Below are positions 8,378-27,584 of a stretch of 27,760 bases of DNA, one piece after another. How positions within the stretch are numbered: position 1 is the first letter of the stretch; each line of letters starts with the position of its first letter. A model generated the notes under the pieces. That model was not told the origin of the DNA and ran no database searches. It was given only the letters and a program-made list of their open reading frames with translations. Origin of the DNA: an uncultured Campylobacterales bacterium (GTDB taxonomy: Bacteria > Campylobacterota > Campylobacteria > Campylobacterales > CAZAFM01); assembly GCA_964484395.1 (NCBI GenBank), contig CAZAFM010000022.1, positions 1-27,760 of the forward strand, written 5' to 3'. The translations under genes were made by a program, and so were the position numbers.

Positions 8378-8911
8378 ATGGGCGCTCTTGCATATGATGA
8401 AAGGTACACCAGAGATGACTATAGACACTGGGAGGGTGATTGGGAGCTGATTGAGGGAAATGCCTATGCAATGGCACCTTCACCTATGTTTTCACATCAA
8501 AATCTTGTTGTAAAAATATCTAGAGTCATGGATGAGGCACTTGATGGATGTGAGAGATGCATGGTGGCTATAGAGATGGACTGGGATGTGAGTGAAGACA
8601 CTGTGTTGAAGCCTGATGTGATGGTGGTTTGTGATCAAGTGGGTGAGAGGGTTGTAAAAGCTCCACTCATAGTCTTTGAAGTTATCTCAAAAAGTAGTGT
8701 CAAAAGAGATGAGATACTAAAGTTTGAGCTATATAAAGATGAGGGCGTAAAATACTACGCCTTAGTCTATCCAGATATGAAAAAAGCAAAACTCTATCTG
8801 CTAAAAGATGACTCATATCAAAAGGTTGGAGATTTTATAAACGAACAGTATGAGTTCAAGCTTGAAGCTTGCAATCTGGGATTTGACTTTAGCAGGATAT
8901 GGAGAAAGTAA
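8378..8911 (+). CDS. Uma2-family (DUF820) PD-(D/E)XK putative endonuclease
   Basis: LIEGNAYAMAPSPMFSHQNLV, then PDVMVV, then VFEVISKS, give the PD...E.K arrangement characteristic of Uma2/DUF820 proteins. Confidence 0.7.
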   Translation: MGALAYDERYTRDDYRHWEGDWELIEGNAYAMAPSPMFSHQNLVVKISRVMDEALDGCERCMVAIEMDWDVSEDTVLKPDVMVVCDQVGERVVKAPLIVFEVISKSSVKRDEILKFELYKDEGVKYYALVYPDMKKAKLYLLKDDSYQKVGDFINEQYEFKLEACNLGFDFSRIWRK

Positions 8912-8931
8912 ACCCCAAAAAGGGGTAGACT

Positions 8932-9735
8932 TTAGCTTATGTTTATTACTATAGAAGCCTCAGGAGATAGAACTCTAAAAGCAGCACTTTGAGTTAAGAA
9001 AAGAGATATTGAGTCTTTGTTCTCTTTTTCAAACCCCACACTTACATCAAATCCGCTATAAAACTTATAGTCTCCACCTCTTTGAGATATGACAAGGGCT
9101 TTGTCGTTTCCTACTGCATTTGATACAATTATACTGTTTTGTCCTAGAAGTTGCTCTATTTTGTGTTTGACACTCATAGCACCTACTGTCTCAACTACTA
9201 GCTTGGAGAAGGTTTGATTTGAAACTACAATCTTGAAGCCCCCTTCTACAAAGCTATCATCAAAAATTTCAAGAGCTTTAGCAGTAGCTGCAAGCATCTC
9301 TTTTGAGCTTGATGCTGCAATTGGTTTATGTTCCATACTTTCAAGCAATCCTGTTATATTGGCTTTTTTAATTCCATCTAGTATCATAGAGTTTTCAGCT
9401 ACTGCAAACTCATTAGCAGCTTTTTGAAGAACCTCATTATCAAAGTCCTCTAAGCCTCTTTTTATCTCATCTATAACCGTCTTTGGTAGGTCAAAATCAT
9501 ACCTCATCTCTACCATACTTATTGGCTCTCTTGCACATATTGTAGTGCCGTTTTTGCTACTTATCTTAGCTAGCTTGCCAGTTGGTATAGCATCTGTTTC
9601 AAAGCTAAAGCTCTCATCAAAGTCCACTACACTTCTAAGTTTAAGTCTTTTAGCTAGCAGTTCTTCAAGTTCACCATCAATTACACTCCATACCTCCGTT
9701 GATATAGGAGCTTTTTCTCTGTTCAAAAATTCCAT
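8932..9735 (-). CDS. Family 1 encapsulin nanocompartment shell protein (linocin M18-like)
   Basis: Near-colinear similarity to the Thermotoga maritima encapsulin: MEFLNREKAP.S.EVW.ID at the N-terminus and ISQRGGDYKFYSGFDVSVGFEKENKDSISLFLTQSAAFRVLSPEASIVI at the C-terminus (versus [49 protein letters not shown]). 267 aa. Confidence 0.9.
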   Translation of the reverse strand: MEFLNREKAPISTEVWSVIDGELEELLAKRLKLRSVVDFDESFSFETDAIPTGKLAKISSKNGTTICAREPISMVEMRYDFDLPKTVIDEIKRGLEDFDNEVLQKAANEFAVAENSMILDGIKKANITGLLESMEHKPIAASSSKEMLAATAKALEIFDDSFVEGGFKIVVSNQTFSKLVVETVGAMSVKHKIEQLLGQNSIIVSNAVGNDKALVISQRGGDYKFYSGFDVSVGFEKENKDSISLFLTQSAAFRVLSPEASIVINIS

Positions 9736-9745
9736 CTACTCTCCT

Positions 9746-10105
9746 TTATGAGTTTTTTCCTATTTTTAGTGATCCAGTTTTTTTAGTAGGTGCGCTCTCT
9801 TGCTCTGAGTCATCTTCTCCATGAGATGTAAGCGCCCCCTCTCTAAACAAAAACTCTCTAAGCATAGCATCCCAAGTAGGTGAGTTGCGTCTAAGCCACT
9901 CTAGTCCCATGCATGCGTGCTCAATCTCCTCATCTCTATTATGCTCCATAAGAGCCTTTGCTTCAGCATTGTTTGTCGCAGCTGCTCTTTGGTTGTACCA
10001 ATCAACTGCTTCAAGCTCCTCTATAGTACTCTGTATAACCCTATGGTAGTCTATGACATCTTCACCCAAGAGGCTGATATCTTCATGTAAGCCTTCATGC
10101 GCCAT
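9746..10105 (-). CDS. Encapsulated ferritin-like cargo protein (EncFtn) with a C-terminal targeting peptide
   Basis: Ferritin-like four-helix motifs (EELEAVDWYNQR .. EHNRDEEIEHACMGLEWL). The C-terminus KKTGSLKIGKNS fits the GSLxIG encapsulin cargo-loading peptide. The gene lies 10 nt upstream of the shell gene on the same strand. Confidence 0.8.
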   Translation of the reverse strand: MAHEGLHEDISLLGEDVIDYHRVIQSTIEELEAVDWYNQRAAATNNAEAKALMEHNRDEEIEHACMGLEWLRRNSPTWDAMLREFLFREGALTSHGEDDSEQESAPTKKTGSLKIGKNS

Positions 10106-10184
10106 ACATATCTCCTTTTAATGTTTTAGTGCACTATAATATCATCTTTATTTAAAATAGAGATAAATAATAAAAAATATTTCT

Positions 10185-10213
10185 TGACAATTAGATATGA
10201 TTTTAGTAGTATG
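10185..10213 (+). promoter_or_regulatory. Sigma-70-type promoter of the Fur-family gene (TTGACA-17-TAGTAT)
   Basis: TTGACA at 10185-10190 and TAGTAT at 10208-10213, about 35 nt upstream of the ATG at 10248. Confidence 0.35.
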
Positions 10214-10247
10214 TGTACTTCACTATAAAATATACAAAAGAGCTGAT

Positions 10248-10661
10248 ATGAATGATTTTAACCTGTCTTTAAAGAAAAGCGGACTGAAAGTTACTCCTCA
10301 AAGAGTTATGATACTTGATGAACTACAAAAAGGTGGACACCTAAATGTAGATGAGATATATGAGAAGATAAAACCACTCTACTCATCTATGTCACTAGCA
10401 ACGGTGTATAAAAACATATCCTCACTACTAGAAGCTAAGATAATAAAAGAGGTCTATATGCCAGCATCAAAACAAAAGTATGAGTTAAGACAAAAAGCTC
10501 ATGCTCACTTTTTCTGCTCAGAGTGTGGAAATATAAGAGATGTGGATGTAGATGAAACTAGCTTAAAAGAAGCATTTAAAGGAAGTGAAGATATAGAGGA
10601 CTTCTCTATGTTATATAGTGGTGTGTGTTTGGAGTGCAAAAGCACCCCAAAAGAAGCGTAG
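10248..10661 (+). CDS. Fur-family metalloregulator, PerR-like
   Basis: LKVTPQRVMILDEL..SLATVYKNISSL forms the winged helix. Two CxxC pairs (CSECG, CLECKS) are present. The protein resembles Campylobacter PerR (ATPQRLCVL..SISLATVYKNL). The ATG at 10248 is preferred over the track start 10197, which would fall inside the promoter. Confidence 0.85.
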   Translation: MNDFNLSLKKSGLKVTPQRVMILDELQKGGHLNVDEIYEKIKPLYSSMSLATVYKNISSLLEAKIIKEVYMPASKQKYELRQKAHAHFFCSECGNIRDVDVDETSLKEAFKGSEDIEDFSMLYSGVCLECKSTPKEA

Positions 10662-10663
10662 GC

Positions 10664-10939
10664 TTAGAAGCCGTCGTTTCTTGGAGCTCTTGGCTCTCTT
10701 GGTTTAGCTGGGTTAACCTTTAGGTTTCTACCCATAAACTCTTTACCAGATATTGCATCTATAGCTTTATCTGCTTCTGTGTCATCAATCATCTCTACAA
10801 AGCCAAAACCTCTAAATTTTCCGCTTTCTCTATCATTTATGAACTTAACTGAATCAACTTCACCATATTGAGCAAAAAGATCACTCAACTCTTCTTCTGT
10901 GGCCTTAAACGGTATGTTACCGACATAGATACTCTTCAA
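10664..10939 (-). CDS. RRM-domain RNA-binding protein
   Basis: RNP1/RNP2 motifs are present: IYVGNIPF and KFRGFGFVEM. The likely start is TTG at 10939 (giving MKSIYVGN), with GGAG 11 nt upstream. The track extends the ORF to 10984. Confidence 0.8.
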   Translation of the reverse strand: MKSIYVGNIPFKATEEELSDLFAQYGEVDSVKFINDRESGKFRGFGFVEMIDDTEADKAIDAISGKEFMGRNLKVNPAKPREPRAPRNDGF

Positions 10940-11021
10940 AACAAATCTCCGAAAAAATAAAATCCAAGCTTTTTGGGCTTGCAAGAGTATTGTATCATAA
11001 AAAAAGAAAATTTAAACAAAT

Positions 11022-11468: not shown

Positions 11469-12185
11469 CTACTCTCCTCTTGTTATTTCACCATCATAAC
11501 TTATGATACCATAGGTTAGGTTTCCAACACTATATCCCATATCTTTTAGAACTCTTTGGCAGTAGCTACTTCTACTTCCTACATGACAGTATAGTATGAT
11601 TTTTTTATCTTTATGCTTTTCTAGTTTTTCCATTGATGTATAAAAAGATGTAGTTGGAATAAGCTCATCAGTACCTTCTATCCTAGAAGCTATATACTCC
11701 ATCCACTCTCTGACATCTACTAGGATAAAATCTATCAAGTTTTTCTTTCTTGCTTCTAGTAGAGCTCCTAGCTCTTCACCACTTAACTGGTCTTTGTGAA
11801 GTATGGCCTCCATCTCCTCTTGTGTAGGCTCTCTTGTGTGTGAGTGGATGACCGCATCAGCACTCTCTATTAAGCCTTCTTCTTTTGCATAAGCAGGCGT
11901 GCAAAAAATCCCACAGTGACATGAACCACTATTTGGTATCTCATCATTTATTGCTGGTTTGCAAGGACATATTCTATCTTCATCTGTATTTGTTACAAAA
12001 AAACATGGACAGTAGAACTTATTGTAGATTACCTTGTTTCTAGCAAGTCCTTGCTTGACGGACTCGACTATCTCTTTATCAGGGTTAAAAGCAAACCCAA
12101 AGTTTTCTATTACCTTTTCTACAAAAACCTCTGTTTTTTTAAAAGCCTCTTTGAACTCTTGTGAGTTAGGGTCAACCTTTTGCAT
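11469..12185 (-). CDS. Ferredoxin-thioredoxin reductase catalytic-subunit-like domain fused to a rhodanese domain
   Basis: The N-terminal half has the CPC..CPC..CHC cysteine arrangement (FYCPCFFVTNTDEDRICPCKPAINDEIPNSGSCHCGIF) characteristic of FTR catalytic chains. The C-terminal half is rhodanese-like, with the active-site loop ILYCHVGSRSSYC. Confidence 0.7.
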   Translation of the reverse strand: MQKVDPNSQEFKEAFKKTEVFVEKVIENFGFAFNPDKEIVESVKQGLARNKVIYNKFYCPCFFVTNTDEDRICPCKPAINDEIPNSGSCHCGIFCTPAYAKEEGLIESADAVIHSHTREPTQEEMEAILHKDQLSGEELGALLEARKKNLIDFILVDVREWMEYIASRIEGTDELIPTTSFYTSMEKLEKHKDKKIILYCHVGSRSSYCQRVLKDMGYSVGNLTYGIISYDGEITRGE

Positions 12186-12281: not shown

Positions 12282-13154
12282 CTATGCTTTAGCCTCTCTG
12301 ATTCTCTCTAGTATGTCTATATGATGTAGTTCTTGTTCTTCTACAAATCTCAGTAGGTTTTTGAAGTCGTCATATTTAACTCTTAGAGCTATCTCTTTCA
12401 TCTCCTCTACCTCTTTTTTCTCATCTTCGATATTGTTGTCTATAAACTCTTTTAAGCTCTTTACCATATACTCCTCTTTTGGAGGGTTTTTAGGCATTCT
12501 TAGCACTCCTAGGGAGCTCATCATAGAAGCATAATATTTCATATGAGAGAGTGACTCATGCATAAGGTCTTTTAGCATCTCAGCTGACCATCTATCTTCA
12601 AGATGTGTAATAAGGAAGAAAAAAGAGATGACACTTGAGTACTCTTTGTCAAGTAGGTTTTCGAGTGAGTTTATAATGAACTCTGCATCATAGGGTGTCA
12701 TTTCAAGATTTTTTGCTACTTTATCTGAGCTACCACCGTATGAGTTGTACATGTGAAGCTCATTTTTGTTTTGAGTCTTTTCTACTTTGTGCAAGAAGTA
12801 TGACTCATCACTTTTAAACCTGTTTGCAAGTACACAACTCTCTCCATAGGTTCCTATTATTACTTTTAGCTCATCTTGTAACTCCTCTAGCATTGTATGT
12901 GCATCACTACTCAAAGGCTCTATTTGCATATCAAAATCATATATTTTAGGAGCAGGGGTGTCACTATCTTTGTTTTCATAGTCAAACTCTCTGTACTCTT
13001 TAACTATCTCATTAGCAAGCCACATCATATGCCTAAACTCTATATCAGAAAAACTCTCCAAGCTTTTTGAGATATCCGCATCCTTTGTAGTAATACTTCC
13101 TATAAGTAGTCTCATCCACAAAGAGTGTTTTTTTCTAAATAGTTCTACTTTCAT
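12282..13154 (-). CDS. Hypothetical ferritin-like (di-iron four-helix) protein with two lobes
   Basis: Two halves each carry E...H-type motifs (EFRHMMWLANEI, LEDRWSAEMLKDLMHE, EEQELHHIDILERI). No signal peptide or targeting peptide was seen. Confidence 0.35.
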   Translation of the reverse strand: MKVELFRKKHSLWMRLLIGSITTKDADISKSLESFSDIEFRHMMWLANEIVKEYREFDYENKDSDTPAPKIYDFDMQIEPLSSDAHTMLEELQDELKVIIGTYGESCVLANRFKSDESYFLHKVEKTQNKNELHMYNSYGGSSDKVAKNLEMTPYDAEFIINSLENLLDKEYSSVISFFFLITHLEDRWSAEMLKDLMHESLSHMKYYASMMSSLGVLRMPKNPPKEEYMVKSLKEFIDNNIEDEKKEVEEMKEIALRVKYDDFKNLLRFVEEQELHHIDILERIREAKA

Positions 13155-25025: not shown

Positions 25026-27584
25026 TTAGATATAGTTCACTAGTGATAGTTGGTTGATTTTGCCTATGGAGCTTAGCATAGCTTGGTAGTTTAGCTGAAG
25101 TTGTGATAGTTGCATACTTGCTTCTGCCATATCGGTATCTGCTATATCTGATTTTAAGGTCTTAGCTTGAACTATCATAATCTCATTTCTTTCAAATGAG
25201 TGTTGAAGTGCATTTCCTTGTGAACCATTTTTGGCGTGGATTTTGTTTACATGATCCATAAGATGGTCAAAAACAGCGATTGAGTTTTGTATGCCAATAC
25301 TTCTAGGGTCAGCATCGTAGTCTTTTTCTTCATTGTATCCATCTGGTCTATAAATTTTGTTTTTAACAGCATCTATAGCAGCATCTACTGAAGTAAAAAA
25401 GTCCACATGAGGGTCATCTATAGTAAGAGCATTATTCTCATGAAAAGATAGTCTTGCAAAATCAGCACTCCCTGCAGTAAAGTCTGTATTCTCATCATCA
25501 TACATTGCTAGTTCTATCTCTGATTCATTTTGTGTTTTATCATAAACCTCAAATCTGCCTTTGTAATCAAGTGAAACATCAACCATCTCTTGAGAGGCTT
25601 GCATAGCATCTCTGTAGTCATTTACATTAGCAGGCGCATTACCGGGTGATGGGGTGGTACCAGAGGCAACAAGGTTTGAGAAGTTAAGTCCTATCTCCAT
25701 AACATTACTTAGTTGCTCATATGTAACCTCATCAGCAGGAGTTGAGGTTGTTGAGTCAAAGTTCTCAAAAAGTTGATAAGGACCATAGTTTACGCCTGTA
25801 TCTGTATTTGTAAGTCCATATGTGCTTCCTCCATTAGCAAGGTTTACATCTATATGGTATGGTGTTCCATTTACATCTACCAAATCCATGTTAATAGTTT
25901 TACCATCTAGTGAGTATTCATAGCTTCCATCTACTCTTTGTGGGCTTGAAACCTCTATAAGTTTTGTCTTAGCGGTTGCATACTCGTTATTGTGAGCTAT
26001 AACTTGTGATGTGTTTGCATTTAGGTATGAGCCACTTTTTTGAAACCTTACCTTATCCACTTCAGCACTAAAATCATTTGCAAATATATCTGTCCCACTA
26101 TCTGAGGCTATCTGAACATCAAGTGAACTCATCCCATCGTATGGAGGATTTTGGATATCTGTTCTTGTTTGTAGGACTGTTTTATCAGTTATGATTATTC
26201 TGCCATTTGTTAGCTCAACATCAATATCATCATAGTTTGGCGCACCTACTGTTGAGTAGTTTTGCTTTATCTGTGTGAGTAGGTCATCTACAGTTGCACC
26301 AGCACCTAGTGGAGTAACAGGTCCTACTGCACCACCTGGAGCTGTTCCATCAGGACTAACAGCAGTACCTGAGAGTTCTAAATCAGGTCCATCTACACCA
26401 AAAACATCAAGAATAGTATCAGTAGGTCTAGCTATTGAGTTATCATCTCGTTTAAGTACTGTAGGGATTTCATGTATCCTATGGTCACTATCTTCCATAA
26501 CTGATTGTGCATCTGTAGAGGTTGGTAGTGAGTAGTAGTTGCTTTTTACATACTCAGTTATTCGTTCACCAGAAGCGATAAGGGCATCTGTATCATTTAC
26601 ATCAGCTTTTGATGAGACCATATGGAAGTTTATCTTGCTTGAGCCTTCTGTTAGATCTTTTACCTCTATCTGTCCCCATTCATTCATAGATACATCTACT
26701 ACTTTGTTTGTAGTTGTATTTCCAAAAGCCACACCAACTCTATCTAGCATATCCCGTACTGTAGTAGCATTACTTTCATCTATGTAGTCTGGGTTTAGTG
26801 AGAACTTCTCTGTAAATCCAACACCATTTGTATTGGTTCCAGAAATATAGAAAAACTCAGGCGGGTCATCAGTAGTTATATCATTATCATCACCCAAGAA
26901 TGACCTTAGTGTATCAGACTCCTTAGAGAAGACTTTTTCACCCGGATTGCCCTTTTCATTAGGACTCATGATGTCTGGGTGTAGCTCTTCTTGGTTGTAG
27001 TGCTTTACATTGGTAGTTAGAATTCTGTTTTTATTATCATCACTTCCTAAGAACAACTCTTTGCCAGTTATGTTATATGTTAGAAGATTGCCAGAGCCTA
27101 CAAGTGCTTGTAGTTTTTCATCATTTCCATGATATCTACCATTTTTATCTATTGGTTTGGTGGATGTAGCTGTTCCACCTAGTATATACTGCTCTCCTAC
27201 AGTTGTATTTGCAAGAGATACAAAAAAATCCCTAAAGCCCTCAAGATCATTAGCAATAGCCTCTATACTCTCATCTGAGTGAATCTCATTTGCAGCATGA
27301 GTAAGCTTTGTTTTAAACTGATCCATACTCTGAGATAGTTGACTTAGGGCGGTATCGGTATTATCAGAAAACTTCCTACCACTTTGTGCTACTGTTTTGG
27401 ATTGATTGAGTGTGGTTACTTCATAATCAAGCCTAAGGGTTTCAGCAAATGTAGAGCTACCCTCATTAGCAAACTGTATCTTCATACCTGAGCTAAGCTT
27501 TTTGGTTATATCAAGTAGGCTACCTTGAGTTCTTTGTTGATACTCTTGCATCATAAGATAGCTTGTGTTAAAACCTATTCTCAT
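25026..27584 (-). CDS. flgL: Flagellar hook-associated protein 3 (FlgL), flagellin-family, with a long central domain
   Basis: The N-terminus (SSGMKIQFANEGSSTF) and the C-terminus (LSQLQLNYQAMLSSIGKINQLSLVNYI) are the conserved flagellin D0/D1 helices. 852 aa, like the large FlgL of Helicobacter/Campylobacter. A sigma-54 promoter lies upstream. Confidence 0.8.
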   Translation of the reverse strand: MRIGFNTSYLMMQEYQQRTQGSLLDITKKLSSGMKIQFANEGSSTFAETLRLDYEVTTLNQSKTVAQSGRKFSDNTDTALSQLSQSMDQFKTKLTHAANEIHSDESIEAIANDLEGFRDFFVSLANTTVGEQYILGGTATSTKPIDKNGRYHGNDEKLQALVGSGNLLTYNITGKELFLGSDDNKNRILTTNVKHYNQEELHPDIMSPNEKGNPGEKVFSKESDTLRSFLGDDNDITTDDPPEFFYISGTNTNGVGFTEKFSLNPDYIDESNATTVRDMLDRVGVAFGNTTTNKVVDVSMNEWGQIEVKDLTEGSSKINFHMVSSKADVNDTDALIASGERITEYVKSNYYSLPTSTDAQSVMEDSDHRIHEIPTVLKRDDNSIARPTDTILDVFGVDGPDLELSGTAVSPDGTAPGGAVGPVTPLGAGATVDDLLTQIKQNYSTVGAPNYDDIDVELTNGRIIITDKTVLQTRTDIQNPPYDGMSSLDVQIASDSGTDIFANDFSAEVDKVRFQKSGSYLNANTSQVIAHNNEYATAKTKLIEVSSPQRVDGSYEYSLDGKTINMDLVDVNGTPYHIDVNLANGGSTYGLTNTDTGVNYGPYQLFENFDSTTSTPADEVTYEQLSNVMEIGLNFSNLVASGTTPSPGNAPANVNDYRDAMQASQEMVDVSLDYKGRFEVYDKTQNESEIELAMYDDENTDFTAGSADFARLSFHENNALTIDDPHVDFFTSVDAAIDAVKNKIYRPDGYNEEKDYDADPRSIGIQNSIAVFDHLMDHVNKIHAKNGSQGNALQHSFERNEIMIVQAKTLKSDIADTDMAEASMQLSQLQLNYQAMLSSIGKINQLSLVNYI

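Follow-up and report, generated by a model that had tools for sequence, protein, structure and literature searches.

What does the pair of adjacent genes described here encode, and is it new? The genes lie on a contig from an uncultured Campylobacterales bacterium, in a stretch of 27,760 nucleotides that was analysed as a whole (hereafter, the window). An earlier note had read them as a family-1 encapsulin shell preceded by a ferritin-like protein with a canonical cargo-loading peptide, in a phylum where such compartments have been little recognised. We consider it highly probable that the encFtn-enc operon of this Campylobacterales bacterium encodes a classical family-1 encapsulin nanocompartment, loaded with an encapsulated ferritin (EncFtn) and devoted to the oxidation and storage of iron. 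The basis for this reading is family membership, fold, metal ligands, conservation of the cargo tail, operon structure, and purifying selection. As to novelty, the gene pair is a real, ordinary, textbook encapsulin system that was already known, and there is nothing unexpected about it.

Genomic setting and operon layout

The window comes from a Campylobacterales MAG and is ordinary chromosomal DNA. Its genes include glycosyltransferases, a carbamoyltransferase, TsaD, RsmH, a CheX-domain protein, an 852-aa flagellin, and a Uma2 nuclease-like protein. Base composition gives no sign of a foreign island, and among 17 ORFs scanned with Pfam across the window none is a phage gene (terminase, portal, protease, or tail). 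The flagellin (25026-27584, minus strand) is unusually long, combining standard N- and C-terminal flagellin domains with a very large central region. The Uma2-family gene, which encodes a putative restriction endonuclease-like protein (8378-8911, plus strand; PF05685, E=1.4e-23), and the shell gene are convergent, with a terminator-like region common to the two; the Uma2-family gene is kept in the closest relative, locus L005 (92% identity), and not in more distant loci.

The presence of two ORFs, an encapsulin and an upstream 119-aa ferritin-like gene, was confirmed to the exact minus-strand coordinates (Table 1). Family-1 systems follow the rule that the primary cargo gene and the shell gene share one operon (PMC8346489). 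This is also the arrangement found here, with the cargo gene 10 nt upstream of the shell gene and a ribosome-binding site (RBS) inside the gap. The overlap of this RBS with the EncFtn stop codon suggests coupled translation from a single transcript. The RBS of EncFtn itself, AAAAGGAGAT, is invariant across three divergent loci. In 10/10 clade loci sampled, the shell gene directly follows the cargo gene, and 9-14 nt separate the two. When the window is compared with L005 (dS ~1), the shell has a dN/dS of 0.083 and the cargo one of 0.051, and values of 0.05-0.08 indicate that both genes are under strong purifying selection.

Table 1. Features of the encapsulin operon and its divergent neighbour (window coordinates)
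Feature	Position	Strand	Remarks
EncFtn cargo gene	9746..10105	-	119 aa + stop; PF22277, TIGR04535, R. rubrum EncFtn identity, dN/dS
Family-1 encapsulin shell gene	8932..9735	-	267 aa + stop; PF04454, NF041155, AF2 model, dN/dS
EncFtn ribosome-binding site AAGGAG	10112..10117	-	6 nt before EncFtn ATG; read from sequence
Shell-gene ribosome-binding site AAGGAG	9741..9746	-	overlaps last base of EncFtn stop codon
Terminator-like hairpin ACCCCTTTTTGGGGT, then T-rich tail	8912..8926	-	5 nt past shell stop; consensus scan, pattern match only
Putative C-terminal targeting peptide KKTGSLKIGKNS	9749..9784	-	residues 108-119
Acidic, poorly conserved linker	9785-9838	-	about residues 90-107; precedes targeting peptide
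Candidate extended -10 element TGATATTAT of operon	10136..10144	-	proposed from conservation
Fur-family regulator gene	10248..10661	+	divergent from operon; PF01475, E=1.6e-24
fur promoter -35 element TTGACA	10184-10189		conserved in three-way alignment

The shell protein

The shell protein matches PF04454 (Linocin_M18) with E=1e-53 and 182.6 bits (cut-off 24.3), and the family-1 equivalog model NF041155 (encap_f1, NCBIfam) with 182.3 bits against a cut-off of 100, over model positions 1-261 of 261. Its alignment with T. maritima maritimacin runs from residues 1-266 versus 1-265 (E=1.5e-40; 31.4% identity, 83/264). The earlier claims of a family-1 shell and of a full-length match to the T. maritima encapsulin are thus both borne out. 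In a PDB sequence search, the T. maritima shell came out best, followed by the shells of H. ochraceum, B. linens, and mycobacteria; the alignments with the H. ochraceum and M. tuberculosis shells, among others, also extend over the full length. Profile E-values of this size, for the shell and likewise for the cargo (1.8e-36), are beyond chance.

We built an AlphaFold2 model of the shell from a 49-sequence alignment, and it reached a mean pLDDT of 95.4 and a pTM of 0.88. The top match of a Foldseek search against the PDB was the H. ochraceum encapsulin 7odw (TM 0.94, rmsd 1.7 A), and all of the top 27 structural matches are family-1 encapsulins. The model superimposes on wild-type T=1 family-1 shells with TM 0.89-0.94 and rmsd 1.7-2.2 A, whereas the T=3 shell of M. 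xanthus and the T=4 shell of Q. thermotolerans give TM 0.72-0.79 and an rmsd of mostly 4-8 A. Because the model is confident and agrees so closely with solved shells, the predicted fold is that of HK97 and encapsulins, and the refuting outcome named in the earlier note, a shell ORF that does not model as an HK97-fold protein, was not obtained. Profile and model together identify the protein as a family-1 (classical) encapsulin with an HK97-type protomer (A-domain, P-domain, and E-loop). Judging from the monomer model, the most likely assembly is a T=1 icosahedron of 60 subunits, ~24 nm across.

Many of the shell's invariant or near-invariant positions are found in the N-terminal helix and its neighbouring strand (L3, R5, P9, W15, D19, L26, L30, R33, V36, and F38). 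The N-terminal helix, together with the P-domain region, is the site of the peptide cleft in encapsulin shells (PMC11202242, PMC8791618). The T. maritima shell binds flavin by way of a tryptophan, W90 (PMC8610991). At the position aligned with this flavin-stacking Trp of T. maritima-type shells, the protein here has Thr86, so it is not expected to be a flavoprotein. We therefore rejected flavin binding of the T. maritima type, and the flavin-linked iron chemistry described for that organism should not be carried over to this system.

The cargo protein

The 119-aa protein is, by sequence, an encapsulated ferritin. It matches PF22277 (EncFtn-like) at 124.2 bits (cut-off 27; E-value given above) and TIGR04535 (encapsulin-associated ferritin-like protein) at 135.3 bits (cut-off 125). 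Over 99 aa, its identity to R. rubrum EncFtn (5da5) is 49%, and it also matches the EncFtn structures of H. ochraceum (E=5e-26) and P. furiosus.

In R. rubrum EncFtn, mutagenesis has verified Glu32, Glu62, and His65 as the iron ligands of the ferroxidase centre, and a conserved Tyr39 lies close by (PMC11202242). Their equivalents here are E30, E60, H63, and Y37. Similarly, the entry-site residues E31, E34, and W38 of R. rubrum correspond to E29, E32, and W36, and two further residues, H57 and E61, are matched by H55 and E59. All nine FOC and metal-entry residues are conserved, among them every Glu, His, and Tyr ligand, so that the ferritin-like protein does have the ferroxidase ligands whose absence the earlier note had named as a refutation. 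The motifs EELEA[VI]DWY and EEIEH occur in the window cargo and in all nine related loci checked. Given its 49% identity to the R. rubrum protein, the cargo would be expected to form an annular D5 decamer with ferroxidase activity. A search for a second cargo was negative: no other ORF of >=60 aa in the window ends in a targeting-peptide-like C-terminus.

The targeting peptide

The cargo ORF ends in ...SAPTKKTGSLKIGKNS. We compared its tail across ten independent loci of one clade, the window included, with shell identities of 45%-86% (Table 2). The core [L/M]-x-I-G-x-N is present in nine of these loci and the shorter I-G-x-N in all ten, and the 15-25 residues preceding the tail are acidic and unconserved across the set. 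A conserved core after a variable linker fits a short docking peptide carried on a flexible linker. One member of the set, the EncFtn of L006 (3643-3990), has Lys where the other tails have the anchoring Leu or Met. Given this Lys, the I-G-x-N part may bear most of the binding in this clade.

Table 2. C-terminal tails of the EncFtn cargo in the ten clade loci
Locus	Cargo tail
Window	TGSLKIGKNS
L005	SSSLKIGKNA
L007	NGSLKIGKNK
L002	SGTLKIGSNS
L001	DSTLNIGNNKK
L003/L004	NSSLNIGNNKKSQK
L008	NSSLTIGNNKK
L009	PTTLNIGNNRK
L010	SGGMNIGSNK
L006	GSKTIGSNR

How close is this tail to what has been published? The consensus for T=1 targeting peptides is DGSLGIGSLKG, with L-G-I as its core, and T. maritima has NTGGDLGIRK as its native peptide (PMC7925596); the localisation motif of H. 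ochraceum is GxLGIxxL (PMC8791618). Compared with the consensus, the clade tails have K, N, or T instead of G as the middle residue and Asn for the second Leu. The earlier note had called the tail the canonical cargo-loading peptide. A conserved targeting tail is indeed there, but it reads L-[K/N/T]-I-G-x-N rather than following the L-G-I consensus, and on this comparison it is a clade-specific variant of the published peptide, not a strictly canonical one. The part of the family-1 targeting peptide is here played by the variant tail GSLKIGKNS, placed after the acidic linker, and this tail would be expected to bind the shell.

Promoters and the Fur-family neighbour

A three-way footprint of the divergent promoter region (window, L005, and L007) has only the fur -35 element, the RBS, and the pattern TGnTAnnAT conserved. 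This last pattern, common to all three loci, marks the candidate extended -10 element of the operon. A generic promoter scan did not return it because a -35 element is absent. Promoters of this kind, with an extended -10 but no clear -35, are typical of Campylobacter and Helicobacter. The operon is probably transcribed from this extended -10 promoter, back-to-back with the promoter of the Fur-family regulator.

The ORF of the regulator opens at 10197; since its homologs begin at MNDFNLS (10248), this later position is probably the real start. The best NCBIfam match of the protein is a PerR model, at 86.8 bits, which is below the cut-off. The block made up of an RRM gene, the Fur-family gene, and the divergent EncFtn and shell genes is found again in L005, whose shell is 84% identical, and in L007, with identities of 52% for the shell and 59% for Fur. 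A divergent Fur-family neighbour is therefore found at three of the ten loci, the other seven being without the block. The RRM-type RNA-binding protein gene (10664-10984, minus strand) is small and lies tail-to-tail with the Fur-family gene. The two adjoin the encapsulin operon in L005 and also, with identities of 71% and 59%, in the divergent L007, and this hints that the RRM and Fur pair is a functional unit.

We searched for operators with two consensus sequences, the PerR 7-1-7 box of B. subtilis and a Fur box of 19 bp, from which Campylobacterota operators may differ. The shared promoter region (10106-10247) contains no match, at <=3 mismatches, to TTATAATNATTATAA or GATAATGATAATCATTATC, and window-wide counts of Fur and PerR box matches are at or below chance. 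Similarly, an inverted-repeat scan and the three-way footprinting found no convincing palindrome in the shared promoter. The operon promoter thus has no recognisable box of the kind that would place it in a Fur or PerR regulon. As may reasonably be read from the arrangement of the genes, the Fur-family protein is a candidate regulator and may control the operon.

Redox and metal neighbours

The neighbours of the operon in its relatives lean to redox or metal functions. As read from translations, they include MsrAB-like and glutathione-peroxidase-like proteins; other relatives have DJ-1/PfpI together with a MutY-like glycosylase, a ZIP metal transporter adjoins the operon in L009, and some loci have unrelated genes.

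Within the window, an ORF of 290 aa (12282-13154, minus strand) appears to encode a tandem ferritin-like protein, whose C-terminal half (161-283) aligns with each half of 9viw, a 'Bacterioferritin' of 306 aa (E=1.1e-7). Pfam gives a weak Rubrerythrin match for the ORF, and both of its halves contain ExxH-like motifs. We rejected this ORF as a Bfr-type cargo because it is without a C-terminal tail and is absent from the examined stretches of related loci; the 'LLIGS' near its N-terminus is probably due to chance. A further ORF (11469-12185, minus strand) has a ferredoxin:thioredoxin-reductase catalytic-subunit-like domain (PF02943, E=2.8e-27) fused to a rhodanese (PF00581). Below threshold, it also matches the FtrB double-selenoprotein family, with Cys here, and it is kept in L005. 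Together, the Fur-family gene, the FTR-rhodanese fusion, the tandem ferritin-like ORF, and the encapsulin suggest a loose redox and metal-stress neighbourhood.

Proposed mechanism

By homology with the systems of H. ochraceum, R. rubrum, and T. maritima (PMC11202242, PMC8346489, PMC8791618), we infer the assembly state, encapsulation, iron mineralisation, and regulation of the compartment. The shell protein would most likely assemble into the 60-subunit, ~24 nm T=1 icosahedral shell, and EncFtn would most likely form ring-shaped decamers, with a di-iron ferroxidase centre at each dimer interface made by E30, E60, and H63, with Y37 nearby. The flexible tail (...GSLKIGKNS) would dock in the shell P-domain, in a hydrophobic cleft of its inner face, so that the cargo would be trapped inside as the shell assembles. 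Fe2+ would enter through the shell pores and be oxidised by EncFtn. EncFtn alone is unable to store iron, and for this reason the ferric mineral would have to be held inside the shell. Storing the iron and removing Fenton-reactive Fe2+ would, in turn, give protection against oxidative stress.

Alternative readings

Could the shell gene be the remnant of a prophage, that is, an HK97-type major capsid protein rather than a nanocompartment? Two phage models, PF05065 Phage_capsid (17.6 bits against 24.2) and TIGR01554, match the protein weakly and below their cut-offs, as is to be expected of encapsulins, which have the HK97 fold too. The encapsulin-specific model NF041155, in contrast, is exceeded by a wide margin (182 bits versus a cut-off of 100), family-1 encapsulins account for the whole of the top 27 structural matches, no morphogenesis genes occur among the scanned neighbours (glycosyltransferases, Uma2, Fur, RRM, TsaD, and flagellin), and 10/10 loci have, upstream, a dedicated cargo that bears a targeting tail. 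With the encapsulin model so far above its cut-off, no phage genes nearby, and the cargo always upstream, we rejected the prophage capsid and regard its probability as negligible. A larger shell, T=3 or T=4 instead of T=1 and with a much higher iron capacity, we consider improbable. EncFtn-type cargos are known in T=3 shells, namely M. xanthus EncA/B/C and the P. furiosus fusion (PMC11202242), and it is important to remember that E-loop geometry sets the T number and that a monomer prediction cannot establish it. However, the length of 267 aa and the model fit T=1 protomers far better than T=3 or T=4 protomers, and the nearest solved shells by sequence, those of T. maritima and H. ochraceum, are T=1.

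For the T=1 family-1 compartment that we prefer, there is the further matter of its main role, which might be bulk iron storage under Fur or defence against peroxide and oxidative stress under a PerR-like regulator; the two are not mutually exclusive. A Fur-family gene divergent from the operon at 3/10 loci and the ZIP transporter beside the operon in L009 speak for storage, to which we give somewhat less than an even chance. Against it, the best, sub-threshold NCBIfam match of the regulator is a PerR model (86.8 bits) and not a Fur model, the neighbours in other relatives belong to oxidative stress (MsrAB-like, GPx-like, and DJ-1/PfpI), and neither a Fur nor a PerR operator was found in 10106-10247.

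Prior knowledge and significance

The framing of the locus as a novelty proved overstated, as identical proteins are already correctly named in GenBank. Record MFP4486476.1 is the identical shell, named 'family 1 encapsulin nanocompartment shell protein' [Campylobacterales bacterium], and MFP4486475.1 is the identical cargo, named 'encapsulin-associated ferritin-like protein' [Campylobacterales bacterium]. There are about 44 homologs at 45-86% identity, and those with a named source are annotated as Campylobacterota, Campylobacterales, or Sulfuricurvum.

The suggestion that encapsulins are little recognised in Campylobacterota holds in part. Our literature search on encapsulins in Campylobacterota/Epsilonproteobacteria found no paper that discusses them, only a listing in a census supplement, and we found no experimental study of any member of the Campylobacterota clade in the searchable literature. 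On the other hand, such systems were catalogued in 2021 and the proteins are correctly annotated. Entries in the supplement to that census (Andreas and Giessen) include at least two campylobacterotal family-1 systems with FLP cargo, from Sulfurovum sp. FS08-3 and Sulfuricurvum sp. RIFOXYD2_FULL_44_160, both of which are filed there under 'Proteobacteria'.

What is mildly new is the clade-specific variant of the tail, together with a divergent Fur-family neighbour that is partly conserved (3/10 loci). One could go further and propose that Campylobacterota EncFtn encapsulins are a distinct sub-type, with a shortened peptide L-x-I-G-x-N-[K/R/S] that has a polar Asn for the second anchoring Leu, and with a part of them wired, by way of back-to-back promoters, to a dedicated Fur/PerR-family regulator; we hold this to be rather doubtful. 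If it were true, the sub-type would amount to a compartment of microaerophilic sulfur oxidisers that sequesters iron and is switched by peroxide or iron. Beyond a confirmed annotation, the locus is of little importance, and the tail variant and the Fur-family neighbour offer a small, testable question on cargo-loading specificity and regulation.

Comparison with known systems

Two systems of the census, those in Sulfurovum sp. FS08-3 and in Sulfuricurvum sp. RIFOXYD2_FULL_44_160, are likewise campylobacterotal and have the same FLP class of cargo; Sulfuricurvum shells are 48% identical to the window shell and carry the same NCBI name. Both systems have been catalogued only. T. maritima maritimacin (3dkt, 7k5w) is the best sequence match among solved shells, over its full length, and is likewise a T=1 shell whose ferritin-like, decameric Flp/EncFtn cargo has a C-terminal peptide (NTGGDLGIRK). 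Unlike the protein described here, with its Thr86, the T. maritima shell is a flavoprotein that needs Trp90 (numbering of PMC8610991; the Trp in TLDLWELD).

For the cargo, the reference is R. rubrum EncFtn (5da5), whose FOC ligands E32, E62, and H65, as well as Y39 and the entry-site residues, are all present here, whereas the linker and targeting tail differ and the organism belongs to a different phylum. The H. ochraceum encapsulin:EncFtn system (7odw, 7oe2) has the same layout, in which a T=1 family-1 shell is preceded by an EncFtn whose localisation sequence is C-terminal. Although its shell is only about 30% identical and its localisation sequence is GSLGIGSLR where the window has GSLKIGKNS, it is the closest structural match to the shell model presented here.
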